From positions 1 to 60,779 of the forward strand of contig JAQXFL010000016.1 of assembly GCA_029250345.1 (NCBI GenBank): DNA of 60,779 nt, read 5' to 3'. This document shows, piece after piece, positions 1,187 to 13,483 of this stretch (its first letter is position 1; every line of letters starts with the position of its first letter). This DNA comes from Candidatus Poseidoniaceae archaeon (GTDB lineage: Archaea; Thermoplasmatota; Poseidoniia; Poseidoniales; Poseidoniaceae). The notes beneath the pieces are model-generated. The model did not search any database, was not told the DNA's origin, and saw nothing but the letters and a program-made list of their open reading frames with translations. Position numbers and translations under genes: made by a program.

Positions 1187-2461
1187 ATGGCTGGGAAGGT
1201 TGTACTTGTTGTCGGCGGTGGTGGCAGAGAACACGCTCTTTGTATGGGGCTATCAGACTCTCGTCACGTGTCGAAGTTGCATTGCACGCCCGGCAATGCA
1301 GGGACTGCATCCCTTGCCACGAATCATTCGGTTTCGGCATCCGACATCACAGGTTTACTTCGTCTCGCTCAAGAGGTGTCTGCTGACCTTGTCGTTGCAG
1401 GGCCCGAAGCGCCGTTGTGTGCAGGACTGGCTGACGAACTTTCAGCACAAGGAATTCCTTGTTTTGGACCAGTCGCGGCTCTTGCTCATCTTGAGGGTTC
1501 GAAACTCCACGCAAAAGAGGTCATGCGTGCAGCAAATGTTCCGACTGCGGCCTTTCACGTACTGGAGCACGGAAGTGATATTGACACTGCTTTGAATGAT
1601 TTTTCCGGACAACCATGGGTCGTCAAGCGGGATGTGCTGGCTGGCGGCAAAGGAGTTGTAGTTACCGAAGACCGTGCTGAAGCATTTTCGTTCATCCAGT
1701 CATCAATAGAATCCGATGGAAGAGTTTTGTTGGAAGAATTCCTTCCTGGTGAAGAGGCGAGCATGTTGGTCGTTATGGACGGATCCGGTTTTGTCTGCCT
1801 ACCTGCCAGTCAAGACCACAAAAGAGCATACGATGGAGACAATGGGCCAAACACGGGTGGAATGGGTGCGTACTGCCCAGCACCGGTTGTCACAAATGAG
1901 ATACGCGATTTGACCATTCAAACCATCATCGAACCGATGCATGCTTACCTGTGTGCGGCGGAGCAACCCTACCGTGGTGTGCTTTACGTTGGCCTCATGA
2001 TTCCTGAATCCGGACGTCCGAATGTGGTCGAATTCAACGTCCGATTTGGCGACCCAGAATGCCAAATCACCCTGCCCCTCATCGAGTCCGATTTGTTCGA
2101 ATTGCTGAATGCAGCAGCCACTGATGGCCTGTCGAAACTTGAGGTTAAGTTTAGTGCTCTTCATGCTGCAACAGTGGTTTTGGCAGCGGAGGGCTATCCA
2201 AGCTCTCCCGTCAAGGGTCGTACTGTTCGAGGCGCTGATTCCGAACCGCTTTCATCTTCAAACGGCAAAGCATGGGTCAGTCATGCAGGAACCGGTCGTG
2301 GTCCAAACGGCGAATTAATTTCAACCGGTGGACGAGTACTCGCTTGCAGTGCTACCGGTCCTACGCTCGAGGCGGCGGTAGAGATGGCGTATGCTCTTCT
2401 TGACACGATTGAACTTGAAGGTTCTCACCACAGAACGGACATCGGTTTCCGTGCTTTGTGA
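1187..2461 (+). CDS. purD: phosphoribosylamine--glycine ligase (GAR synthetase)
   Basis: 424 aa. The N-terminus KVVLVVGGGGREHAL...PGNAG is a typical PurD signature, the middle is ATP-grasp like, and the ending is PurD-like. ATG confirmed at 1187. Confidence 0.9.
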   Translation: MAGKVVLVVGGGGREHALCMGLSDSRHVSKLHCTPGNAGTASLATNHSVSASDITGLLRLAQEVSADLVVAGPEAPLCAGLADELSAQGIPCFGPVAALAHLEGSKLHAKEVMRAANVPTAAFHVLEHGSDIDTALNDFSGQPWVVKRDVLAGGKGVVVTEDRAEAFSFIQSSIESDGRVLLEEFLPGEEASMLVVMDGSGFVCLPASQDHKRAYDGDNGPNTGGMGAYCPAPVVTNEIRDLTIQTIIEPMHAYLCAAEQPYRGVLYVGLMIPESGRPNVVEFNVRFGDPECQITLPLIESDLFELLNAAATDGLSKLEVKFSALHAATVVLAAEGYPSSPVKGRTVRGADSEPLSSSNGKAWVSHAGTGRGPNGELISTGGRVLACSATGPTLEAAVEMAYALLDTIELEGSHHRTDIGFRAL

Positions 2462-2636
2462 GTTGTTTTGGCACTCCTATTTTATCCGTTAAATCGACAA
2501 CCGTAAACAACGCTCAATGTTATGCAGCAAGGCATTCATCTGTTGTCCGCTCAGCGGAGTCATTAAAAGAGGCTCTAAAGTGGCGAAGACGCTTCAGCCT
2601 TGCTGCTGTCGCGCAAACACCTTTGAGGGAAAAAAT

Positions 2637-5600
2637 ATGGAACAAATAACTGGCACAAAAAGCACAGCGCCAGCAGCACCGTTGGGATGGCTTATCGCTC
2701 CCCTAGCAGTTCTGCTCGCACTCGCAGCTATCAAGCTCGTCGGCATTGACTTCGAGCTTACCGCAGATAACTTGGCACCGATGTTGATCGTCGGCGCCGC
2801 AGGCATCCTGGGTCTGGTCCCATCGATGCTTGACCAATCCAATTCCGCATCTGTTTCCAAGGCCACTCTTTCCCTCTCCACTTTGGCCGTGGCGCTTATC
2901 GGTGCTGTGGCAATTTACATGCTCGACAATGGCGCATTCTCCGGTCTTCTGTTCGCTTTCGTTACGTTTGGCGTTCATTTCATGAGCAGCCGTGGGCGAC
3001 ACGAACTTGCGACCATTATCGTATTCATCGCTATGGGTGCAAACGTCGGTATCTTCATTGCATCCGATGCACTCACAACCCTGCCAGAGATTTACAATCT
3101 GGCGCCAGAGGGTGAACCACAAAGTTTGGTTTCAACACTCAACTTGAAGAATCAAGCTGTAGGCTACCTCTTCTTCTCACACCTTACCGTTTTCACCCTC
3201 GTCGGTGTATTGGTCGCAACCTTTGCTCGTGGTGTGCTTACTCCTGTTGGCGAATCCGGTTGGTTCAGTTTCTTGAACAGCGACACGAGTTCAAAATTCA
3301 ACAAGAACAACCTTCCTCTGCAAATCGCACTTACGGTTTGGGCTTTGGCTCACATCGGCAGTCTCTGGCACTTTGAGACCGTCAGCGTTGCTGACAAACT
3401 TGGAATTACTTCAGCGGCAGATTACCACGGAATTGTTGGCTACTGGCAAGCATTCTTCACCGGAATGGTGGCAGTTGTTGTAGCAGGTATGTTTTCCGAA
3501 CGATGGCACACTCGTGCCATGACACTCGGTTCTCTTTGGACGCTCTACGTTGTTTCGTCTTGGTACGATGCAGGAATGTTTTCAATGGATCTCCTCGAAG
3601 GCAACTGGGGCAGTTTGATTTGGCTCGGACTGACCTTCTTCATCGGAGTCGGCATTTACTCGATTTCAACCCACGAAACGTGGGGTGGCTGGGTCAACCG
3701 TGACGATCACGAATACTCCGGTGCTCGTAAGTTCTGGAATCAACACTGGTCCAGCGTCATGATTGGGCTCGCATTCTTCTTTGGTCTGGTCATCCGAACA
3801 CAATGGTATGTTGTACCGTCCATGAACGCTTTCGGAACCGGAAACTGGGACATGACCGGAGGATCTGACCCTTGGTACATGAAGCGTGTCGTCGATTATA
3901 TCCTTGCAAACAATGCTCACATGATTTTCGATGCAGACCGTTCTTACCCAATAGGTGGTATCAACCCTCGACCTCCGATTTTTACCTGGTCAATTGCAGT
4001 TGTTGCAACACTTCTCGAACCGTTCTTCAGCAACGGCGATGCAGTCTGGTGGGCTATACTTTCCCTCCCTGCAATTTACGGTGCTCTCACCATTCTACCG
4101 GTGGCTTACATCGCACGTGAACACATCAACGAAAAGGCAGCAGTTGTCGCCGCTTGGCTGATTGCTTTCATGCCGGCTCACGTGAGTCACACGACATGGG
4201 CACTTGCTGACCACGACGCTTTCATCATGCTCTTCATTACACTAGGATTCATGTTCTGGCTCCGTGCGGTGAAGTATGCAGGTAGCGAGCGCTTGTTGCG
4301 CTCCTCATCTCCGTCGGCTATGGCATTTGTAAACGCATTTACCGCCGTCGCACAAGAACGCCGTGCTGCACTTTCAGCCGCAGTTCTTGCTGGTGTGAGT
4401 TTCGGAATCGTTTCGCTCGGCTGGAAAGGTTTCGTCGTTGGTCCGTCGATTATCTTCTTGGCATACGCTGCACAAGTTGCACTCAACATGTTCCGCCGCC
4501 GAGATTCAACGACTCTCAACGTCTTGTTCCTCACCATGCTTTCAGTGAACTTCTTGATGGCTCTCCCATTCTACGGTCACCCTCAAATCGATCTCATGCT
4601 TGATGGAACCGGCCTTCAGCCGTTCTTGTTTATTGCTATCTTCACAATAGCAATCAGTTTCGTTACCACTGGATTCCGTGACAAGCCTTGGTTGCTCGTC
4701 CTCGGTGTTCTTGCCGGTGCTGGAACTGTGTTCTTCATCGTATTGTGGCTCCTCAAGGAAGCGAACCTCTCCAATGCTTGGGATGTACTCTTCACTGGTA
4801 GCGGATACTTCACCAAGACTAAGATTTTTGGAACTGTTGCCGAAGCAAATGCTCCAAACCGTGGACAGTTGTTTGCGCAATTTGGACCAATCACCTTCGT
4901 TCTTTCACTCATCATGGGTATTCTCTGCATTTGGTCGGCTCTACGTGATCGAAAGCAAACCAAACTCGTATTCGGTGTGTGGATTCTCGCAGCCTCGTTC
5001 ATGGCTTGGACTGCAGCACGTTTCATGTTCAATGCAACACCAGCAATCGCAGTCCTCGGCGCTTGGGGAATCGTTTCCCTATGGAAGTGGGCAAACTGGG
5101 AAGGCATGGTCAAAACATGGAAGAAGATGGGAATCCGTTCTCCAGAAGACCGTATTCGTGGTGCACGCAAGGCGCTCTGGCGTACTCCTTCCTTCTCCGC
5201 AATCATGCTCGTCATGATTATGTTGTTTGGACAACAGTTCACCTACGGTCTCGATGCAGCAATTCCTTCCAGCAACAATGCTGAAGACGATATCGATGAA
5301 ACAATCTACAATCTGATCCCTGACGCATTCCGCTGGGAAATCGGTGGTTTTTCGTTGCTTGATGACAGTACTTACGACGGAAACTGGTATCTCGGTTCTT
5401 TCGGCTCTGGATTTAACGACAACGGCTGGAACTCGGCATATGAGTGGCTTGCTGAACAGGATCAAGACATGAAATATTCAGAACGTCCTGCCTTCGTCTC
5501 TTGGTGGGACTATGGTTTCCAAGCCCTTGATACTGGGGAGCACCCCTCTGTATCCGATAACTTCCAGACTGGAATTTCTGCTACAGGTAACATGTTGCTC

Positions 5601-8600
5601 GCACGCAGTCAAGAAGACCTCGTATCCATGTTCATCTGGCAACTTGGTCAAGGCGACTTGACTTACAATGAGGCCAAAACAGGTAACCTTGAGTTCACAA
5701 ACGGCTATCAGAACATCGTAGGTTCATACCTCACCGATGAGCAAATGGATATTTTGAACGATGTTTCGACCGATGTTGATACCGATGAGAGGGTTTCATT
5801 CTTGAAACTCAACAGTTACCAAGTCTACCGTACCAACGAAGATACAGTCTTGGCTAGAGGATATCATCACACCGATGGAGTGTTCGATGAGTCTACGCAA
5901 TACTGGAGAGTTTACGACGAAGGAGAACGCATCCTCTGTACCGATTCACTTTCGACGACCTGTGTTGATGGTGACTGGTCATCAGAAGCAGAAGCGGAAA
6001 ACACCTTCTCGAACAATATTCGAACCGGTAATGACAACATCAATCGGGTCTCACACTACATTATTGGAGATTACTGGTACACCGCTGACCTCGTCGAGGA
6101 ATATGGATCTGTATCCACAAATCTCCACCGATCAAACGCAAGATTGGCACTCACCGTTCAACTGCTTTCCAACAGCCTCGACTCTGGCGAGATCATCGAC
6201 ATGTACGATGAACTCATCAACATGGAAGGCTACTACACCGTTCAAGATTACGACGGTGCACCCGGAGAAACGATTGATCGAGACCACGAAATCCGTTACT
6301 ACGCTATTGACAACCGACTGTACCCCCGTGCAGGACGTTACACTGCTGACATGAACTACAACCAAGGTCAACCGATGGGTATCTTCGGCGCACCAACAAT
6401 TCTCAGCGGCCAAGATATTACCACTTACATGGATGAAGTCTACGAAACCATCCGTGGCGACTTCCCAGACGAAATGACCCGTGCTGAAGTCGACGAAGCG
6501 ATTACTCAAGATTTCCTCAATCAACAATCTGGTGCTGATATTGACCCACTGCAAGTTCAAGATGTCCGTGTTGATCACAACTCTGCATTCTTCGACACCA
6601 TGCTCGCTCGTTCATACGTCGGATACGGCGCATCAACGCTTGGCGTCGATGCCGGCTCTTCAAACCCGCAACCTGCCCAGCATTTCGGTCAATCCGGTAG
6701 CCCTGGAAGCATTTTGAGTCAAGGACTGCCTTTGCCAGGTGCAATGACCAATCACTTCGTTATCTCGAACTGGTACTCACCTGAAGCAAATTCTTCAGTT
6801 ACCGCTGAAGAGCAAACAGTAGGTATTTCCTCGACCAACACATTGGTTAAGATTCTCAAGTACTACTCTGGCGCAGAAATTTCTGGTCAAGTTACCATGT
6901 CTGACAATGGACTGCCATTGCCGGGTGTTCGCTTGCTCATTGAGCGAGACGCATTCTCTGGTGAAGGCGCAGATGATTTGGACCCAGATACCTACTGGGT
7001 TCCAATTGGCTTTACAGATGCTGATGAGAATGGCCGCTGGTCGTTCGATGCACCTGCTGGCCGAATCCGTGTCAGCGCATACGCTGGCGACTACGACCCA
7101 ACTCTTGCACAAGATAACATCCGCTCTGGTGCATTCTCACAAGGTCTCGGAGATATATTGACAGAAACCAACGACGACCGAGTTATCAACGACATCTCGG
7201 CTATCCTTGGTGAAGTGGCAAACATGAGCTGGCTTGGTGAAAACCAACACAACATCACTGCTGAGCAAGCAGACAGCAACGCTCCAGTGAGTGCAGATTT
7301 CAACATCGCAGTCGAAAGCAGCGGCATCTCTGGACAAGTGACATGGAGTGGCCATGAATCATTCGACGGCGACGCACTGGTGAGCACAGACTTCATTCTG
7401 CGTAACATTTGGTCCTTGACCGACAATTACACATTGACCACTACGAACGGTTCTTTCACATCAGCCGACAGCAGAATCCTACAGGGCTCTGGAGAGGCAA
7501 CCTTTGTCGAAAACGGTACGTTTGAAAGCGAAGGTGTCGCCTTTGCTGACGACTTCACAGGAACCTTCACCCGTTCGATTGGCGATAAGCGAGTTTACAC
7601 CAGTAACGGTACATGGGACGGCAAGGGAACACTTGTTGCATCATGGATCGCTGAAGATAATGTCTTGGACTGCTTGGATAACGAAACAGCGCCTATGCCT
7701 GAAAATTCCACCGTGTGTATTCAGGACAGCACAACTTCACCACTCACATACTTGTTGGATGGCGCTGTTGAAGCAAACGGACGTTTGACTTCTGATGGCA
7801 TCTCGACACTTGTGACTGAGCACGTTGGAGATTCGTTTGAAGCAACTGGTTCCTTCGAAGGAACCGGTACTCTAAACGGAACAGGATTATTCATTGGTAC
7901 CGGATCTTTCAGCGGAGAAATGGTTCAGCCAGGTTCGTTCTACCTCACAGGTCTAGTGCCTGGTGTTTACAACATGATTGCCCAACTTGACAACGGCAAG
8001 GAAGTTCTCCTTCCTGACCCAGTCAACGTCGGCATCTCGCCATCCTATGACCTTGCCATGACAATGCCAGGATCTATCTTTGAAGACACACTGCAAGATT
8101 TCTATGAAGAAAAACTTGTCAATGAAGTCATTGAATGGGTCGATGTAGACCTCGGAATGGATTCCTTGGTCGAAATACACACCGATGAGGATGGAAACTT
8201 CTCGTATGGCCCTATTGCATCAGGTGAATACTTCTACCGTGTTGACATCGACAGCGATGGCTGGTACGAACTCAACGAAACAATTTATGCACGTGGTGAA
8301 TCAGAAAACTTCTCCCTCGCAATGGATGTTCCTGAAATGTACGACATCTCTCTCCAATTGACGTCACCTGTAGACCCTCAAACGCAAACGGCGTATGCAG
8401 ATGTTTCACAGAGAGTCGTTACATTTACCAATTCAGATCCGCTGTTCGGACCTCTCAATGCAACTTCTGATGAAACCGGAATGGTTTACATCGAACTGCC
8501 TATGGGTGCGTACACAATATCTGACGAGTCTGGTGATGACTACATTCTCTTCGATTTCGTTGAACTCAACAATGAAGATGTCGCTATGAGCAGTGCTTAC

Positions 8601-11600
8601 GCAATCGCTACATACGTCAATGGTAGTATTCGTGCTCCAGACGGCGGTTTGTTCTCCGCAGAATACACATATGCAGACTGGGCTGCTCAAGAGGCAGTTT
8701 ACAAGCTTGAACAAAGCCAACCAGCATCTGGTCTTGAAGTCAATTTCGTTGCGAACGACCTCTCCTTCTCGACAACCGTTGAAACGGATGGAAACTTCAG
8801 TATGCGCCTGCCAAGTGGAAACACCTTCCACATGACTGCGATTAGCCTTGTTTCTCAGATGTCCTCGGGCCAACTTGTGGTACTGGGCGGAGATGCAGAG
8901 ATTGATATCGGACTCATGTATCTTGAGCCAACCGTCGCAACATTGGGTCTTGTCTACCTTTACGACAACAGTTCGCTATGGGATGGACTCGTACCTGGAT
9001 ACGCTGCACAAGAAGTCGTGGCAACTGATTCAACCGGACTTGAATGGAGAACAACCATCGATGATCAAGGTGGCTTTGCATTCTCCCTTCAACCGGGTGA
9101 CTGGGATTTCACAGTTGATGAAGAATTACTCAATTCGACAACTGTAACGGACTACGCAATCCTCGATAACGAGGGAATTGCTCCGAACTCTGTTGAATTG
9201 TTTGTCAGCCCTGAACCGTTGACAATTGTACTCAATGTCTTCATGAACTCCGGAGGAGATGGAATTTTCGCAAACGGAACTGGCGTTTCTCCAGCATTCT
9301 CGCTGATTCCTCTCAACAACCACGGACAACAGTACAACTTTACTACGAGTGACTACACTGCAACTGGAAACATTTCAGTCGTCTTAGAGCCTGGACTGTA
9401 CAGTATTGACTTCAACGAAACCTCAGCTGATGATGAGAACGCTACGGACTACAACCTACTCGGCGATTCAACCTTTGAAACAATGATTGTTGGAATCGAG
9501 GCGTATGAAGAAGCAGTTTCGTTTGCACTACGCAATGAATACCTTGTAACTGGACAACTTACAAACTCGTCCGGTGAGGGTGTTGAAAAGCAATTCTTGC
9601 TCCGAAACGACGCAGACGACTTGTGGCATAACATCGCATCTGATGTGAATGGAAGTTTTGCCTCCTACGTCCCTGCTGGCGAATGGGTTGCTATTGTCGC
9701 ACCGTTCTCGGCGTCCAATGACAGTATGGAAACATACCGTGAAGCGTTCACAGTTAGCGAAGATTCATCATTGCGCACTGGATTGAACTTTACCTCTATC
9801 GAAGTGGTCACAGTGAACTTCCAAGTACAGGAATTGAACACTGACTCCAACATGAGTGATGTTCGGATTACCCTTGTCAGTCACGACGGATTCGGAAACA
9901 TCACGCTTTCGAAGTCGGACCAGTTCGGTAATGTCAGCGAAACCATCATGCCAGGTACTTGGAGCATGTTCCTCAATCAAACAGAGCCTCAGCGACAATG
10001 GAGTCTCGACACATTCGATACTCCTTTCACCACCGACAACGCTGTTGACGGCGTTCTTGAGCTTGGTATTGTTTCACCAGAACTCATGGTTGAAATCGGC
10101 GGTAAAGTCTTCTGGGATCTCAACGATGACGATATCCCCGGTGGTACCGAGGGTGTTGCTAACACCACAGTCAGCATCACTGGATTCAACAACACGGCTA
10201 TTGATACCAATGTGACAACCGATGAATTCGGTGTTTGGTCCTTGTTTGTACCTATTCAAGACGAATACCAAGTTTCAGTTTCGAAGGAAGGATTCAGTAC
10301 TGAAGTCTACAATGTTTCGAACACCAGTGCATACCCAGTCTATGCTGCTCCGGAATCGTACGATATCGAGATGACAGCAGGAAACGTTACTGTTTCTGGA
10401 AACGTCACAGACATCAATGACGCTGAGCGACTGAACGGGTCGATTGTTACATTGTACCCGACTTCTGGTATGGCCGGAGAGACAATTGTTGTTGAATCTC
10501 AATTTGACAACGAAGTGCTCACTTGGTCTGCAGTCATTTCACCCGGTGAATGGATTGTGGTTGTTACCGAAGCAAACCCTGGCGAAAACGGCGGCGGAGT
10601 TGCCATTGGTCTTCTTGATGCGAGCATCTCCGATGGCGCAACTCTCGACCTTGAGATGTCGCTCGGTGGCTGGCTTGACCTTTCCACCTCTTGGACCGAC
10701 ATCAAACTCGATGAATACCACGCTGGTTCATCCAGTGATGGCTGGATTTACATGAACGAGACTGCGGTTGTGACCATGACCATCGGCGATGACTTGGAAT
10801 GGGATTTGCCAGTTGGTGAAGACGGAACAATTAGCGTCCTTATGCCGGCATCTGAGATTGAAATGGACTCTTCGTTCATCACGATTCAACATGACTTACA
10901 ACTTGAGATGGAATACATCGGCGGTGCAGTAACACAGGTTGCTGAAGGCCGCTCACCGGTTTCCCTGTCGTACACACGAAGCATCAACTCTGATACTTCG
11001 ATCAGCATGGTCGAAGGAAGTGTAACTGGTGCAACCGTTGACTCAGAGGTGGCATTTACCGCAATTGAAGAGGAAGAAGGATACCAACAGATTGAATTTG
11101 AACTTGAATTGAATTACGAAGGAACGGAAACCGTGCAAGTCTTCGATGTTCTTGGACAAATTCTAGTTTCTCCTGATGAAGCCGACTGGACGATTGAGTT
11201 CAAGAACGGTTCGACCTATGAGGATTCATACCAAGTATCCCTTGGTATCGGAAACAGTACCAATGATACATCGGTTCAATCGACTGCAACGGTTGGTGTT
11301 CGAATCACTGTAGCAAATCAATCAGCGGCATGGCATCTTGAAGACCCTCACACACTGAAGGTTCGTATGCTAACTGACAGCACTCCTTCGAGTGAAATCT
11401 CAGTTACTGTTCAAGTACCTCAAATCTACGGATTGGAAACTTCTGACGAAGACGAATCAGTCGGAATTGGTGCAGGTGGAAGCAGCATGTTTGGATTTGT
11501 ACTTGAGAACACTGGTAACGGTGACGACTCGTACACCATCGAACTCTCAGACAACATCCCTGAAGGTTGGGAAGTTACTCCAATGAGTTCGGTGATCACC

Positions 11601-12194
11601 ATCGCTAAGGGTGACACACGATCTCAAATGTTTACAGCATTCGCTCCAGAAGATTTCGATTCTGGATCGAAGGTCGTCACCGTCACCGTCACCAGCGAAG
11701 ACGGTTTGACTACCGATTCCTTCGATGTGGAAATTGTCAAGGCGAGCATCGAACTTTCTGTCGACCAGGATGATATCAAAGAAGTTTCAAATCTTTACGC
11801 TAACCGAGCTGGCAAATTGATTATACCGATCCAGAACAGTGGATTCTTGGGCAGTGATGATATCGTTGTTTCTGTAAATATTCAAGGTGGTCGAAGCCTG
11901 GGTGCTCAAACCGTTTCGATCGACCCTGAGGGAATGACAAACGTCACTTTCGACATGGAGGCTTCAGATGCATCGGGTACTGTACGGTTTGATGTGCGTA
12001 TTGAAATTGTTGGCGAAGACAGTGAATTCACCGACAATGCTGTTGATGAGTTCGATTTCAAGATCGAGTATCAAATAGATGAATCAACTGACGATTCCAA
12101 CTTGTTTACCATTGTCATCGCAATTCTTGGAGTATTGGTGCTCTACGGTGGTGTTCGCATCTCCCGACGCAGCAACAAGGGCTCACGTTTCTGA
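2637..12194 (+). CDS. aglB: giant dolichyl-phosphooligosaccharide-protein glycotransferase (AglB/STT3 core) fused to extra N-terminal TM helices, about 1800 aa of beta-sandwich repeats and a C-terminal TM anchor
   Basis: One uninterrupted ORF (2517..12194). The likely start is ATG 2637 (MEQITG), preceded by GAGGG. An STT3 EL1-type motif GGSDPWYMKR has its Asp codon at 3867. The catalytic WWDYG motif is at 5502-5516, with many TM helices before it. Downstream are CarboxypepD_reg-like (ISGQVTMSDNGLPLPGVRLL...DENGRWSF), SdrD-B/Cna-like (GKVFWDLNDDDIPGG) and CARDB/NEW3-like (FVLENTGNGDDSYTIELSDNIPEGWEV) segments. A final TM, LFTIVIAILGVLVLYGGV, is followed by RISRRSNKGSRF. Confidence 0.8.
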   Translation: MEQITGTKSTAPAAPLGWLIAPLAVLLALAAIKLVGIDFELTADNLAPMLIVGAAGILGLVPSMLDQSNSASVSKATLSLSTLAVALIGAVAIYMLDNGAFSGLLFAFVTFGVHFMSSRGRHELATIIVFIAMGANVGIFIASDALTTLPEIYNLAPEGEPQSLVSTLNLKNQAVGYLFFSHLTVFTLVGVLVATFARGVLTPVGESGWFSFLNSDTSSKFNKNNLPLQIALTVWALAHIGSLWHFETVSVADKLGITSAADYHGIVGYWQAFFTGMVAVVVAGMFSERWHTRAMTLGSLWTLYVVSSWYDAGMFSMDLLEGNWGSLIWLGLTFFIGVGIYSISTHETWGGWVNRDDHEYSGARKFWNQHWSSVMIGLAFFFGLVIRTQWYVVPSMNAFGTGNWDMTGGSDPWYMKRVVDYILANNAHMIFDADRSYPIGGINPRPPIFTWSIAVVATLLEPFFSNGDAVWWAILSLPAIYGALTILPVAYIAREHINEKAAVVAAWLIAFMPAHVSHTTWALADHDAFIMLFITLGFMFWLRAVKYAGSERLLRSSSPSAMAFVNAFTAVAQERRAALSAAVLAGVSFGIVSLGWKGFVVGPSIIFLAYAAQVALNMFRRRDSTTLNVLFLTMLSVNFLMALPFYGHPQIDLMLDGTGLQPFLFIAIFTIAISFVTTGFRDKPWLLVLGVLAGAGTVFFIVLWLLKEANLSNAWDVLFTGSGYFTKTKIFGTVAEANAPNRGQLFAQFGPITFVLSLIMGILCIWSALRDRKQTKLVFGVWILAASFMAWTAARFMFNATPAIAVLGAWGIVSLWKWANWEGMVKTWKKMGIRSPEDRIRGARKALWRTPSFSAIMLVMIMLFGQQFTYGLDAAIPSSNNAEDDIDETIYNLIPDAFRWEIGGFSLLDDSTYDGNWYLGSFGSGFNDNGWNSAYEWLAEQDQDMKYSERPAFVSWWDYGFQALDTGEHPSVSDNFQTGISATGNMLLARSQEDLVSMFIWQLGQGDLTYNEAKTGNLEFTNGYQNIVGSYLTDEQMDILNDVSTDVDTDERVSFLKLNSYQVYRTNEDTVLARGYHHTDGVFDESTQYWRVYDEGERILCTDSLSTTCVDGDWSSEAEAENTFSNNIRTGNDNINRVSHYIIGDYWYTADLVEEYGSVSTNLHRSNARLALTVQLLSNSLDSGEIIDMYDELINMEGYYTVQDYDGAPGETIDRDHEIRYYAIDNRLYPRAGRYTADMNYNQGQPMGIFGAPTILSGQDITTYMDEVYETIRGDFPDEMTRAEVDEAITQDFLNQQSGADIDPLQVQDVRVDHNSAFFDTMLARSYVGYGASTLGVDAGSSNPQPAQHFGQSGSPGSILSQGLPLPGAMTNHFVISNWYSPEANSSVTAEEQTVGISSTNTLVKILKYYSGAEISGQVTMSDNGLPLPGVRLLIERDAFSGEGADDLDPDTYWVPIGFTDADENGRWSFDAPAGRIRVSAYAGDYDPTLAQDNIRSGAFSQGLGDILTETNDDRVINDISAILGEVANMSWLGENQHNITAEQADSNAPVSADFNIAVESSGISGQVTWSGHESFDGDALVSTDFILRNIWSLTDNYTLTTTNGSFTSADSRILQGSGEATFVENGTFESEGVAFADDFTGTFTRSIGDKRVYTSNGTWDGKGTLVASWIAEDNVLDCLDNETAPMPENSTVCIQDSTTSPLTYLLDGAVEANGRLTSDGISTLVTEHVGDSFEATGSFEGTGTLNGTGLFIGTGSFSGEMVQPGSFYLTGLVPGVYNMIAQLDNGKEVLLPDPVNVGISPSYDLAMTMPGSIFEDTLQDFYEEKLVNEVIEWVDVDLGMDSLVEIHTDEDGNFSYGPIASGEYFYRVDIDSDGWYELNETIYARGESENFSLAMDVPEMYDISLQLTSPVDPQTQTAYADVSQRVVTFTNSDPLFGPLNATSDETGMVYIELPMGAYTISDESGDDYILFDFVELNNEDVAMSSAYAIATYVNGSIRAPDGGLFSAEYTYADWAAQEAVYKLEQSQPASGLEVNFVANDLSFSTTVETDGNFSMRLPSGNTFHMTAISLVSQMSSGQLVVLGGDAEIDIGLMYLEPTVATLGLVYLYDNSSLWDGLVPGYAAQEVVATDSTGLEWRTTIDDQGGFAFSLQPGDWDFTVDEELLNSTTVTDYAILDNEGIAPNSVELFVSPEPLTIVLNVFMNSGGDGIFANGTGVSPAFSLIPLNNHGQQYNFTTSDYTATGNISVVLEPGLYSIDFNETSADDENATDYNLLGDSTFETMIVGIEAYEEAVSFALRNEYLVTGQLTNSSGEGVEKQFLLRNDADDLWHNIASDVNGSFASYVPAGEWVAIVAPFSASNDSMETYREAFTVSEDSSLRTGLNFTSIEVVTVNFQVQELNTDSNMSDVRITLVSHDGFGNITLSKSDQFGNVSETIMPGTWSMFLNQTEPQRQWSLDTFDTPFTTDNAVDGVLELGIVSPELMVEIGGKVFWDLNDDDIPGGTEGVANTTVSITGFNNTAIDTNVTTDEFGVWSLFVPIQDEYQVSVSKEGFSTEVYNVSNTSAYPVYAAPESYDIEMTAGNVTVSGNVTDINDAERLNGSIVTLYPTSGMAGETIVVESQFDNEVLTWSAVISPGEWIVVVTEANPGENGGGVAIGLLDASISDGATLDLEMSLGGWLDLSTSWTDIKLDEYHAGSSSDGWIYMNETAVVTMTIGDDLEWDLPVGEDGTISVLMPASEIEMDSSFITIQHDLQLEMEYIGGAVTQVAEGRSPVSLSYTRSINSDTSISMVEGSVTGATVDSEVAFTAIEEEEGYQQIEFELELNYEGTETVQVFDVLGQILVSPDEADWTIEFKNGSTYEDSYQVSLGIGNSTNDTSVQSTATVGVRITVANQSAAWHLEDPHTLKVRMLTDSTPSSEISVTVQVPQIYGLETSDEDESVGIGAGGSSMFGFVLENTGNGDDSYTIELSDNIPEGWEVTPMSSVITIAKGDTRSQMFTAFAPEDFDSGSKVVTVTVTSEDGLTTDSFDVEIVKASIELSVDQDDIKEVSNLYANRAGKLIIPIQNSGFLGSDDIVVSVNIQGGRSLGAQTVSIDPEGMTNVTFDMEASDASGTVRFDVRIEIVGEDSEFTDNAVDEFDFKIEYQIDESTDDSNLFTIVIAILGVLVLYGGVRISRRSNKGSRF

Positions 12195-12226: not shown

Positions 12227-13483
12227 ATGAACTCGTGTAGGGGGGTCGGAATGGAAGGGCTTGACAACGTAGAATTGCTCCCAGAGCCTAATGATTCACG
12301 CATACTTTCTGTTGTTGATTCTGCAGTTGTAGGCTTCCAAGACCAGTGGCGGTCAGAAGTCACTGGTTGGGCTCCAATGCAGGCCGTGCCAGTCCCTCGG
12401 ATACGTCGTCGTAAGATGCTCGTCACCAATGGCGTCGCCTTCTCTGTTCTTGTTATACTGATGCTCTATGTTTGGAATTCGGGATTGCTCTTTCTTGAGA
12501 TTCCTCCACCAAAGTCTGAATGGGCCATCGAACAGTCCCAATTTGAGGATTTGACCGATATGGGTCTGTCTGGTGAAGGCGTTCGGGTCTGTATGGTTGA
12601 CACTGGAATAGATCTCAGTAACCCTGCATTTTCAAATCTACAAGTTACCTTCAAGGACATGATAGGTGCTTCAACTTCTCCAGTTGACTACGGTTACGTT
12701 GCCCACGGTACGTTGATGGCAGGCATTCTTGTCTCGAACGATCATCAACTTGGTGTAGCACCAAATGTTGACCTTGCGATGGTTGCAGCTCTCGGTGCAG
12801 ATGAGGATGACATGAACAGCGGTTCAGAAGACACAGTTGCACGTTCAATTCGCTGGTGTCAAGATGAATATCAAGCGCACATCATATCTCTCTCTCTTGG
12901 TGGGGAGCAAAACGTTGAGATGCACACCGAGGGAAGCAGTGTTTCTGCGGTGCGAAGGGCTGTTGACTCAGGTATTTTCGTCGTCGCTGCGGCAGGTAAC
13001 GATGGTGGTGGGAGCGATGACGGTTTGGTATCTGTTCCCGGTAATGTCCCTCGAGTCATAACAGTGGGTGCATCTACAGAGTCTCAAAGTGTATGGGCAA
13101 ACTCATCTTCAGGGTCACAATCTTTACTGAACGGTGAACAACGCCAACATCCCCACATGAAACCTGAAGTGATTGCTCCTGGTGAAAACATCATCAGCAC
13201 AGGTGTAGGCGACACGTGGTTTTCCAGCAGTGGCACATCAGATTCCACGGTATTTGTTACTGGTGCGCTATCGCTTCTTCTCGAGGCGTTCCCTGAATAC
13301 AAGGCAACATCAGATTCAGACGGATCGTGTATCGATGCAGTCAAGAACGCTCTCATGGAATCTGCGCTGAAATACGACGATACTGCAACGCATGATAACC
13401 AATGGGGATACGGTCAATTACAGGCTTTGGACTGGTATTCTTACCTTGAAGTTCAATCACCTGTGTGCTCGTTTTCCGAATAA
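12227..13483 (+). CDS. membrane-anchored subtilisin-like serine protease (peptidase S8)
   Basis: Asp/His/Ser triad contexts are VCMVDTGID, HGTLMAGIL and SSSGTSDSTVFVTGALSLL. An N-terminal TM (MLVTNGVAFSVLVILMLYVW) follows RIRRRK. It lies 32 bp downstream of the giant aglB. Confidence 0.8.
   Translation: MNSCRGVGMEGLDNVELLPEPNDSRILSVVDSAVVGFQDQWRSEVTGWAPMQAVPVPRIRRRKMLVTNGVAFSVLVILMLYVWNSGLLFLEIPPPKSEWAIEQSQFEDLTDMGLSGEGVRVCMVDTGIDLSNPAFSNLQVTFKDMIGASTSPVDYGYVAHGTLMAGILVSNDHQLGVAPNVDLAMVAALGADEDDMNSGSEDTVARSIRWCQDEYQAHIISLSLGGEQNVEMHTEGSSVSAVRRAVDSGIFVVAAAGNDGGGSDDGLVSVPGNVPRVITVGASTESQSVWANSSSGSQSLLNGEQRQHPHMKPEVIAPGENIISTGVGDTWFSSSGTSDSTVFVTGALSLLLEAFPEYKATSDSDGSCIDAVKNALMESALKYDDTATHDNQWGYGQLQALDWYSYLEVQSPVCSFSE

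Follow-up and report, generated by a model that had tools for sequence, protein, structure and literature searches.

A 3185-residue AglB/STT3 protein of a Poseidoniaceae archaeon carries an in-frame, sequon-dense stalk of beta-sandwich domains with its own C-terminal membrane anchor

To our knowledge, AglB/STT3 is the sole enzyme common to all N-glycosylation systems, and the characterised archaeal AglBs are all stand-alone proteins of about 600-1050 aa. AglB-L of Archaeoglobus fulgidus (3WAJ/3WAK/5GMY/7E9S) contains a 13-helix GT-C domain followed by an external C-terminal catalytic domain, and its GG(N/S)DPWY, D-H-D/H, TIXE-type EL5 and WWDYG motifs are shared with the giant protein described here. 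Beta-sandwich domains, dense sequons and a C-terminal membrane anchor, which the giant protein also contains, are present in Sulfolobus SlaB (8QOX_B) and the Haloferax S-layer glycoprotein, whereas these are separate polypeptides with signal peptides and are not fused to an oligosaccharyltransferase. A further likeness was found to NOMO of the eukaryotic ER (BOS complex), which contains a transthyretin-like/CarboxypepD_reg rod followed by one C-terminal TM helix but is without a catalytic module. Marine Group II contains the ocean's most abundant planktonic euryarchaea, and we know of no member that was ever cultivated.

The window, which is the whole stretch of 60,779 nucleotides of Candidatus Poseidoniaceae archaeon DNA that was analysed (contig JAQXFL010000016.1), was found to contain the giant AglB gene on the forward strand, followed by an S8 subtilase gene. 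Homology searches of the 3185-aa protein were done part by part, and tRNA and Rfam scans of the whole window gave no matches. The features were as follows.

2637..12194, forward strand: giant AglB coding sequence, 3185 aa and a TGA stop (uninterrupted ORF, orthologue alignment)
2637..3716, forward strand: N-terminal membrane module, aa 1-360, 10 predicted helices, no known family (AF2 helices)
3720..5261, forward strand: STT3/AglB GT-C transmembrane domain, aa ~362-875 (PF02516, TIGR04154, phmmer, Foldseek)
3867..3878, forward strand: EL1 motif DPWY, aa 411-414, with Asp411 (aligned to AglB of A. fulgidus)
4209..4217, forward strand: D525-H526-D527, second acidic (DxD-type) motif (opposite DHH of 3WAJ)
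4833..4844, forward strand: TVAE, aa 733-736, EL5 TIXE-type motif (opposite the TIAE region of 3WAJ, phmmer)
5262..6836, forward strand: AglB external catalytic domain, aa ~876-1400 (weak AglB_core-like match, PDB alignments)
5502..5516, forward strand: WWDYG catalytic motif, aa 956-960 (aligned with WWDYG of 3VU0/3VGP/3WAJ)
6585..6869, forward strand: core-stalk linker, aa ~1317-1411 (low AF2 confidence, conserved motif)
6837..12086, forward strand: stalk outside the cell, made up of diverged beta-sandwich domains, aa ~1401-3150, ~1750 aa (Pfam, AF2, Foldseek)
12099..12155, forward strand: C-terminal TM helix, aa 3155-3173 (hydropathy 2.3-2.5)
12156..12191, forward strand: basic tail RISRRSNKGSRF on the cytoplasmic side, the last residue being an invariant Phe (sequence, orthologue alignment)
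12227..13483, forward strand: S8 subtilase, basic stretch and TM helix in its N-terminal part, aa ~58-90 (Pfam Peptidase_S8, 124 bits)

The stop-to-stop frame 2517-12194 was found to be a single ORF with 0 internal stops, in agreement with the uninterrupted 3185-aa ORF at 2637-12194 that had been proposed in an earlier sequence-only reading of this DNA. The start at 2637 (MEQITG...) matches a conserved Met in the orthologue alignment, and the resulting 3185 aa equal the called length in relatives such as P0080. That reading had also put the protein at roughly threefold the length of characterised AglBs, which was borne out. Compared with A. fulgidus AglB-L and other characterised archaeal AglBs, the giant protein is ~3.5 times longer.

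The GT-C transmembrane domain was found to contain the Pfam STT3 family (PF02516; CAZy GT66) at aa 399-650, scoring 53.8 bits where the cutoff is 24.5. The NCBIfam model TIGR04154 (archaeo_STT3) was matched over aa 375-993 (E = 2.5e-52; profile positions 3-574 of 831) with 178.3 bits, below its curated cutoff of 450 bits, and by sequence comparison the protein is related to this 'oligosaccharyl transferase, archaeosortase A system-associated' family but outside that subfamily. In phmmer, A. fulgidus AglB 3WAJ was matched over aa 369-807 (E = 2.5e-7), followed by the presence of a match to 5GMY. The AF2 model of aa 1-1200 (pLDDT 75.7) contained a GT-C fold of 13 helices and, outside the membrane, the C-terminal domain, and its best 19 Foldseek matches were all AglB/STT3/PglB (E 1e-11 to 4e-5, probability 1.00), including 7E9S, 3WAK, 6S7T, 8AGC and 5OGL. 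A. fulgidus AglB-L and other characterised AglBs were thus the best matches in sequence as well as in fold, with an identity of 15-17% over the fold alignment. When a 13-species profile was compared with the PDB sequences, only STT3/AglB was found and the stalk was unmatched. The GT-C domain was also the most conserved region of the protein (dN/dS 0.025-0.037). The complete STT3 core fused in frame to a beta-sandwich extension, as the earlier reading had it, is upheld by the PF02516 match, the AglB/STT3/PglB fold and the conserved frame.

In the first external loop, D411 of GGSDPWY was found to align with GGNDPWYY of A. fulgidus AglB and was invariant in 13 orthologues. The second acidic motif, D525-H526-D527, was invariant in the orthologues and remained >90% conserved when distant relatives were added, followed by the presence of TVAE at aa 733-736, which was likewise invariant in the orthologues; TIAEA was found in distant giant relatives. 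The WWDYG motif was found in every orthologous ORF spanning that position; among the giant relatives of at least 2000 aa it was present in 96 of 97, the remaining one containing WWDFG. The positions previously given for WWDYG (5502-5516) and for the EL1 Asp (3867) were both exact. A DK/MI motif, which would complete the Ser/Thr +2 pocket, was not clearly recognisable in the giant protein, and Ser997 was found to align with the DK lysine of 3VU0. A helix QEDLVSMFIW (aa 992-1001), with invariant D994 and M998, occupies the place expected for DK/MI, where truncation at aa 1200 makes the structure model unreliable.

The 10-helix N-terminal module, the sequon-dense extension together with a sequon-free catalytic ectodomain, and the downstream S8 subtilase had been overlooked in the sequence-only reading. 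The helices of the N-terminal module (H14-35 to H323-344 in the AF2 model) precede TM1 of STT3 and are extra to A. fulgidus AglB-L; the archaeo_STT3 and 3WAJ alignments begin only at aa 369-375, after this module. No Pfam match was found for the module even at E<=1. Its origin as an internal duplication of the STT3 TM domain was rejected, as the one overlap given by hhalign was an artefact of residues at the boundary and no profile similarity was found between the two. All relatives of the ~3150-3230-aa class were found to carry the module, which is missing from the class of 2000-2800 aa; its dN/dS was 0.07-0.11. The step to which the module is attached is one for which we know of no lipid-linked-glycan flippase identified in archaea.

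The external catalytic domain contained a weak AglB_core-like match at aa 949-993, and the C-terminal domains of 3VU0/3VGP were also found to align. The catalytic ectodomain (aa 901-1384) contained 0 N-X-S/T sequons against 4.9 +/- 1.9 expected. The linker that follows was modelled with pLDDT <50 (model residues 117-211) and was found to contain an invariant motif, LPGAMxNHFVIxNWY, at nt 6732-6776. At the distant locus L045, an in-frame TGA was found directly after the equivalent of this motif, and the stand-alone core ORF of that locus ends near the counterpart of aa 1400.

A collinear full-length ORF of 3184-3261 codons was found in 26 independently assembled Poseidoniaceae species, with a conserved gene order of PurD, AglB, S8 and beta-helix. 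The giant AglB gene also lies next to genes for further giant surface proteins and to pilin-like genes. It is extremely improbable that the giant ORF is an artefact, that is, a chimeric join, frameshift or misassembly of an AglB gene and an adjacent surface-protein gene. Some entries do look split, namely P0050 (1786 aa) and P0055 (1871 aa), both without STT3, and P0001 (1644 aa), and gaps lie close to the junction in two scaffolds; however, N runs in the scaffolds L043 and L044 account for the split stalk entries, and L001 and L046 were found to be frameshifted long-read pilon contigs in which the S8 gene is likewise broken. P0050 and P0055 were rejected as genuine split stalk orthologues on account of these gaps, and P0001 and P0072 were rejected as genuine short forms on account of the frameshifted contigs. 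The 26 independent assemblies contained a continuous ORF with a conserved junction, and aa 1250-1500, which covers the 6.5-7.5 kb interval where misassembly had been a concern, was stop-free in them with few indels and one short variable stretch. The dN/dS was 0.025-0.106 across all six regions, extension included, and every region, on both sides of the core-stalk junction, is under purifying selection. The giant ORF as a misassembly appears refuted for practical purposes. A frameshift or stop in the stalk was found in three species representatives (L034, L038 and L042), and these breaks may be assembly errors or may be a sign of a dispensable stalk.

The stalk was found to contain CarboxypepD_reg several times (Pfam, 62.8 bits), followed by the presence of weak Pfam matches to NOMO-like, FixG_C and CARDB domains. 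The CARDB match (PF07705, aa ~3040-3123) gave 13.6 bits and E = 0.083, below the gathering threshold of 22.7 bits, and in one distant giant relative CARDB was found with 21.8 bits within the 0.001 list; no Pfam match to SdrD_B was found in the window protein. Thus, of the domain types named earlier for the extension, CarboxypepD_reg stood, CARDB was weak and SdrD_B was undetected by Pfam, and in place of near-identical repeats the extension contained a fixed array of diverged domains. The likeness to Cna-B, SdrD and pilins rests on Foldseek and on Pfam matches in relatives. In the AF2 models the stalk was all-beta, at high confidence, over aa ~1410-2400, and its Foldseek matches were Gram-positive pilins, Cna-B, SdrD, alpha2-macroglobulin MG domains and SlaB, the pilin/Cna-B-type matches being 1D2P, 10PS, 2Y1V and 3KPT. 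Only generic beta-sandwich arrays were found by Foldseek of the stalk, with no enzyme and no lectin. The matches to NOMO are weak Pfam matches below the thresholds, and common descent is unsupported beyond the domain superfamily.

The stalk was found to contain 44 sequons against 17.3 +/- 3.8 expected (z = 6.9), with 14 against 5.8 +/- 2.1 at aa 1386-2000 and 23 against 7.8 +/- 2.6 at aa 2001-2600. About 30 of the stalk sequons were kept in at least 23 of the 26 orthologues, and the conserved ones include N1529, N1539, N1597, N2111 and N2421. Other surface proteins of the same window gave a sequon z of -1.1 to 3.6, and in 95 giant AglBs the median observed/expected ratio was 2.35 with a median z of 5.8. 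With ~2.5 sequons per 100 aa, the stalk is similar in sequon density to the Sulfolobus S-layer glycoprotein SlaA, for which 31 predicted N-glycosylation sites are reported (PMC2948927). From the sequon enrichment, glycosylation of the stalk is predicted. The stalk was acidic (D+E 16.5%, K+R 3.1%) and its dN/dS was 0.036-0.091.

The extension closes, as had been proposed, with a TM helix (aa 3155-3173) and the basic tail RISRRSNKGSRF, and the claim of a second membrane anchor after the stalk is confirmed by the C-terminal TM helix, which was found in all full-length orthologues. Across the ~3150-3230-aa class the tails close with RF, KF or PF, the final F3185 being invariant. The C-terminus of the window protein (...SNLFTIVIAILGVLVLYGGVRISRRSNKGSRF) was found to be without PGF and gave no match to the NCBIfam PGF-CTERM model, whereas PGF(E)-like motifs precede the last helix in some relatives of 2000-2800 aa. 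In the comparison with S-layer proteins, the giant protein thus differs in its tail without PGF-CTERM, and no lattice-forming domain was identified in it.

Compared with A. fulgidus AglB-L, the giant protein adds the ~1750-aa stalk and a 24th TM helix after the catalytic domain. The reading that we lean towards, on balance, is that of an active AglB oligosaccharyltransferase in one covalent chain with an envelope stalk that is itself heavily N-glycosylated, with both ends anchored in the membrane. In its favour are the invariant catalytic motifs, the STT3 fold, the architecture and gene order conserved in 26 species, the purifying selection and the sequon statistics; against it stand the DK/MI motif that was not clearly recognisable, the TIGR04154 score well below its cutoff and the frameshifts or stops in the stalks of L034, L038 and L042. 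The protein would be a single 24-helix membrane protein in which the 10-helix module is followed by the 13-helix GT-C domain, the WWDYG domain, the stalk and the final TM helix, and the basic tail after this helix would face the cytoplasm. The stalk lies between the GT-C bundle and the last helix and would therefore form a ~2300-aa extracellular loop with a membrane attachment on either side. The enzyme would transfer lipid-linked glycans to the Asn of N-X-S/T, and the stalk, whose ~44 sequons start where the sequon-free catalytic domain ends, would be a major substrate of its own enzyme and could receive its glycans in cis or from adjacent copies while emerging from the translocon. The glycosylated stalk would then be a fixed-length element of the envelope or glycocalyx, similar to a membrane-anchored S-layer stalk, and not a variable adhesin.

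The sequence-only reading had compared the extension to an adhesin, and it is very unlikely that the stalk serves as an adhesin for particles or cells and merely shares its polypeptide with AglB. Its top Foldseek matches are Gram-positive pilins and adhesins (TIE, RrgB, BcpA, Cna-B and SdrD), and the gene has pilin-like genes and those of further giant surface proteins beside it; however, the membrane holds both ends of the stalk, so that no free distal tip is left for an adhesin, and no recognisable binding domain was found in the stalk by Pfam. Adhesins usually vary in repeat number and are faster-evolving, whereas the giant gene was found to be near-constant in length (3184-3261 codons), with a dN/dS of 0.04-0.09. 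The adhesin reading is disfavoured by this tight conservation of length and sequence together with the membrane at both ends.

The topology, in which external beta-sandwich domains are followed by a C-terminal TM helix, is analogous to that of non-catalytic eukaryotic OST subunits, and the stalk and last helix may act as a built-in scaffold that positions or gates substrates or couples the enzyme to the translocon. This was considered quite unlikely. The last helix and tail were found to contain invariant I3161, G3172 and F3185, which suggests a specific contact of the last helix, and the first 600 aa of the stalk equal the catalytic ectodomain in conservation; however, neither the sequence nor the fold searches gave a match to ribophorins, OST48 or proteins of that kind, 1750 aa far exceed the need of such a scaffold, and the strong and conserved sequon enrichment indicates a glycoprotein product instead of a chaperone.

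The S8 subtilase gene begins 32 nt 3′ of the giant gene and was found to contain the D/H/S triad motifs DTGI125, HGT160 and GTS336, so that the protease looks active. In every Poseidoniales locus reaching that far, including the distant L045, S8 was found directly 3′ of the giant AglB gene, whereas in the giant-AglB lineages L047 and L048 the downstream neighbour was a small CARDB protein. A polyprotein, also raised as an option in the sequence-only reading, would be cut in the linker (aa ~1317-1411) into an AglB of ~1400 aa and a surface glycoprotein of ~1780 aa anchored by the C-terminal helix, and the co-encoded membrane-anchored S8 subtilase would plausibly be the linker protease. Cleavage of this kind is judged unlikely overall. 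The synteny of an S8 with an intact triad and a TM anchor extends to the 35%-identical L045, the low-confidence linker nonetheless carries an invariant linear motif, and the single in-frame TGA of L045 falls exactly at the core-stalk boundary, the core and the stalk therefore being separable units. However, giant AglBs of other lineages have the same architecture without an adjacent S8, the gene order kept within one order may reflect simple inheritance, no cleavage motif was found, and the downstream piece of L045 is without a signal peptide, so that the split form may need read-through or be defective.

Of the 150 nearest representatives of 50%-identity clusters, 97 were found to reach a length of at least 2000 aa, and 95 of these 97 giant relatives contained a C-terminal TM helix with a basic tail. 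The giant STT3 class of 2000-2800 aa, encoded by uncultured Thermoplasmata-like archaea (examples are P0112, P0176, P0141 and P0094), exists as database entries only; its members contain an STT3 core followed by a CarboxypepD_reg/SdrD_B/NOMO-like/CARDB array and a C-terminal TM helix with a basic tail, and share the sequon-rich stalk with the window protein; the nearest named matches of this class were 'Thermoplasmata archaeon' MAGs (homology search, 10 matches). They differ from the window protein in their identity of 28-37%, in the lack of the 10-helix module, in the position of WWDYG at about aa 565-820, in a PGF-CTERM-like motif in some of them and in a small CARDB protein downstream instead of S8. 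The fused architecture is thus not unique but conserved and widespread in related archaea. The caveat that the architecture may prove common and annotated in relatives was found to hold for its frequency, but the annotation there is generic ('STT3 domain-containing protein', 'hypothetical protein' or 'carboxypeptidase regulatory-like domain-containing protein'). No description of a giant or fused AglB was found in the literature searched, the survey by Nikolayev et al. 2020 being outside that search.

The giant AglB is a widespread variant of a known enzyme for which no published description was found; the enzyme is built permanently into a protein of 3185 aa, the additional two-thirds of which resemble its own heavily glycosylated substrate, and almost a hundred 50%-identity clusters show the same plan. 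In field data on an MGIIb genome, the genes with differentially high transcription included one for an oligosaccharyltransferase (PMC9723583). If the stalk is an envelope component, as in the reading of an active AglB joined to a glycosylated stalk, the finding bears on what covers Marine Group II cells, on the coupling between glycosylation and export, and on the surfaces met by marine archaeal viruses and grazers. A bolder proposal, put forward tentatively and with more doubt than belief, is that the principal glycosylated envelope protein of MGII and many Thermoplasmatota is the C-terminal two-thirds of the oligosaccharyltransferase and not the product of a separate S-layer gene, that the enzyme, translated first, glycosylates its own stalk, and that the stalk, pinned at its two ends or released by the neighbouring membrane subtilase, forms the glycocalyx. 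If true, this would provide a natural enzyme-substrate fusion in N-glycosylation and the first molecular handle on the MGII cell envelope.

The giant AglB gene was found to lie in a stop-free plus-strand frame (2517-12194), and the start at 2637 (MEQITG...) fell on the Met conserved among orthologues and agreed with gene calls of 3185 aa in relatives. The uninterrupted 3185-aa reading frame claimed from the sequence alone was thus recovered with zero internal stops. No break in base composition was found across the gene, and tRNA and Rfam scans of the whole window gave no match. The catalytic region contained the following motifs, the DPWY and WWDYG motifs lying exactly where the sequence-only reading had placed them.

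nt 3867-3878 (aa 411-414), plus strand, DPWY, with D411 opposite the catalytic Asp in GGNDPWY of Archaeoglobus fulgidus AglB-L (3WAJ)
aa 525-527, plus strand, D525-H-D527, opposite the DHH of 3WAJ
aa 733-736, plus strand, TVAE, an EL5 TIXE-type motif
nt 5502-5516 (aa 956-960), plus strand, WWDYG

The claimed STT3 core was borne out by Pfam STT3 (PF02516) over aa 399-650 (53.8 bits, cutoff 24.5), by the alignment to 3WAJ beginning at aa 369, and by NCBIfam archaeo_STT3 over aa 375-993 (E = 2.5e-52, yet 178 bits against a 450-bit cutoff). In the AlphaFold model of aa 1-1200 (pLDDT 75.7, 45-sequence alignment), the 19 best PDB fold matches were AglB, eukaryotic STT3A/B and PglB. No DK/MI motif was recognisable; Ser997 aligned with the DK lysine and was followed by an invariant Met998.

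Every STT3 alignment was found to begin only at aa ~369-375, and the model placed ten helices, not mentioned in the sequence-only reading, before STT3 TM1. Since this number is even, the N-terminus would stay inside the cell and the catalytic domain outside, as expected. The module gave no Pfam match at E<=1, no sequence relatives in the PDB and no similarity to the STT3 membrane domain in profile comparison, and its dN/dS of 0.07-0.11 indicated purifying selection.

The core was followed by a linker of ~95 aa with low model confidence, containing an invariant LPGAMxNHFVIxNWY, and by an all-beta chain, for which model confidence was high over aa ~1410-2400. The strongly acidic stalk (D+E 16.5%, K+R 3.1%) was followed by a hydrophobic helix at aa 3155-3173 and the tail RISRRSNKGSRF, so the beta-sandwich extension and terminal helix with basic tail were confirmed. 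As to the domain types proposed for the stalk, several CarboxypepD_reg domains were found by Pfam, the CARDB match was weak, as were the NOMO-like and FixG_C matches, and the Cna-B/SdrD likeness came from Foldseek. Foldseek returned only tandem beta-sandwich proteins, namely Gram-positive pilins, Cna-B, SdrD, alpha2-macroglobulin MG domains and the Sulfolobus S-layer stalk SlaB. The last residue was an invariant Phe after R, K or P throughout the 3150-3230-aa class (last two codons at window nt 12186-12191), an ending seen in no other large ORF of the window.

With each GTDB species represented by a single genome, a scan returned 41 Poseidoniales loci; in 26 the orthologous ORF was complete and unbroken (3184-3261 codons), with WWDYG present and a C-terminal helix and tail of the same type. 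The remaining loci reached contig ends except for L034 (in-frame TAA near aa 1900), L042 (frameshift near aa 2000) and L038, located on the MG-II reference chromosome CM001443.1 (frameshift at aa 1543). In each of these three the break lies within the stalk rather than the core, a count too small (n=3) to be statistically meaningful; the breaks may stem from faulty assembly or hint at a dispensable stalk. Regional identities to the window protein fell in parallel, the stalk's first 600 aa were conserved to the same degree as the catalytic ectodomain, and dN/dS was 0.025-0.106 in every region (Nei-Gojobori, against four relatives). The 26 assemblies contained zero stops and only one short variable patch over aa 1250-1500, giving no sign of a chimeric join, and the order PurD, giant AglB, S8 subtilase, beta-helix protein was invariant.

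Seemingly separate "core" and "stalk" database proteins were explained by N runs in two independent scaffolds, in or near the junction (L043:~490-804, aa 1258-1260; L044:~4013-4116, aa 1307-1418), and the apparent splits in L001 and L046 by indel errors in long-read contigs, where the S8 gene was broken too. Assembly may be prone to breaking at this highly conserved stretch, giving rise to spurious "stalk-only" entries. With the ORFs, junction and gene order conserved, dN/dS low and the split entries explained, misassembly was excluded for practical purposes; the observation of a giant fused AglB is correct and robust.

One genuine exception was found, the short-read Tara contig L045, whose core is 35% and whose stalk is 29% identical. 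Both parts share a frame, interrupted by a single stop that immediately follows the conserved motif NHFV(L)SNWY.

L045:9900-10010 (~ window nt 6830), in-frame TGA, between a core of 1377 aa and a stalk of 1886 aa

The downstream product (database entry P0079, a cluster of 14 sequences) contained no signal peptide. The TGA, which places a module boundary at about aa 1400, may be read through, may mark a genuine split or may be a defect.

An exhaustive HMMER search with core aa 334-1400 against 1.84 billion cluster representatives gave 836 matches. Among the best 150, ten proteins of 3146-3228 aa (identity 43-66%, a range including a named Thalassarchaeaceae fragment) contained WWDYG at aa 934-993, which implies the N-terminal module, and 87 of 2000-2775 aa (identity 28-37%) contained it mostly at aa ~565-820, which implies its absence. 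As 97 of these 150 were giants, 95 of them ending in a hydrophobic helix and basic tail, the architecture is widespread. Four domain-scanned giants contained STT3 followed by CarboxypepD_reg, SdrD_B, NOMO-like and CARDB domains; the closest named relatives of one were "Thermoplasmata archaeon" MAGs. Several giants of 2200-2700 aa (P0103, P0105, P0112, P0113, P0140, P0154 and P0186) carried a PGF(E)-like motif before the last helix, a PGF-CTERM/archaeosortase A-type sorting signal usual on S-layer glycoproteins. The sequence-only reading would have lost its novelty had the architecture been both common and annotated; it is common, but source annotations were generic, full-text literature searches turned up no description, and a recent review of archaeal N-glycosylation mentions no such fusions. 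The giant AglB is a widespread, apparently undescribed AglB variant.

The giant AglB gene stands at the head of an island of surface-protein genes, and its neighbourhood contained the following.

12227-13483, plus strand, S8 subtilase, 32 nt downstream of the giant AglB gene
within 13508-36873, beta-helix/Big_7 protein, 1515 aa
within 13508-36873, STAND ATPase with HTH and TPR repeats
within 13508-36873, minus strand, two archaeal pilin-like DUF7289 proteins
within 13508-36873, metallo-beta-lactamase-fold protein
within 13508-36873, two more giants, 1917 and 1854 aa
L047:15065-16009 and L048:8343-9152 (other lineages), CARDB-domain protein, 270-314 aa, directly downstream of a shorter-class giant AglB

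At its N-terminus the subtilase contained a basic RIRRRK and a TM helix, a type II anchor, and its DTG/HGT/GTS motifs were intact; its best NCBIfam resemblance, below cutoff, was to mycosin-type membrane subtilases. Its syntenic position directly downstream in all Poseidoniales would fit a chain that is later cut, with the subtilase in a processing role, but it is missing beside the giant AglBs of L047 and L048. There the small CARDB protein, 12 nt away in one locus and overlapping by 4 nt in the other, unrelated one, suggests a conserved partner of the shorter class. A beta-helix/Big_7 giant likewise adjoins the giant AglB in L047. The two options first proposed, a cell-wall machine or a cleaved polyprotein, are both plausible; the subtilase bears on cleavage, and sequons and conservation on the role of the stalk.

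Neither the N-terminal module nor the catalytic ectodomain contained any N-X-S/T sequon (for the ectodomain, 4.9 +/- 1.9 were expected). The stalk contained 14 over aa 1386-2000 (5.8 +/- 2.1 expected) and 23 over aa 2001-2600 (7.8 +/- 2.6 expected), and ~30 stalk sequons were conserved in at least 23 of 26 species. The whole-stalk enrichment was z = 6.9, against -1.1 to 3.6 for other surface proteins in the window, and in 95 giant AglBs the median observed/expected was 2.35 (median z 5.8). The density of ~2.5 per 100 aa resembles that of S-layer proteins with heavy glycosylation, such as Sulfolobus SlaA with its 31 predicted sites (PMC2948927).

We infer that the 23 N-terminal helices would insert first, followed by folding of the catalytic domain on the outside; the stalk would then be threaded outward, its conserved sequons being glycosylated by its own or neighbouring catalytic domains, and helix 24 would act as stop transfer, leaving the basic tail cytoplasmic. 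Sequon enrichment and strong purifying selection, a fixed length and anchoring at both ends together favour a stalk that would serve as a glycosylated structural element of the envelope rather than a variable adhesin.
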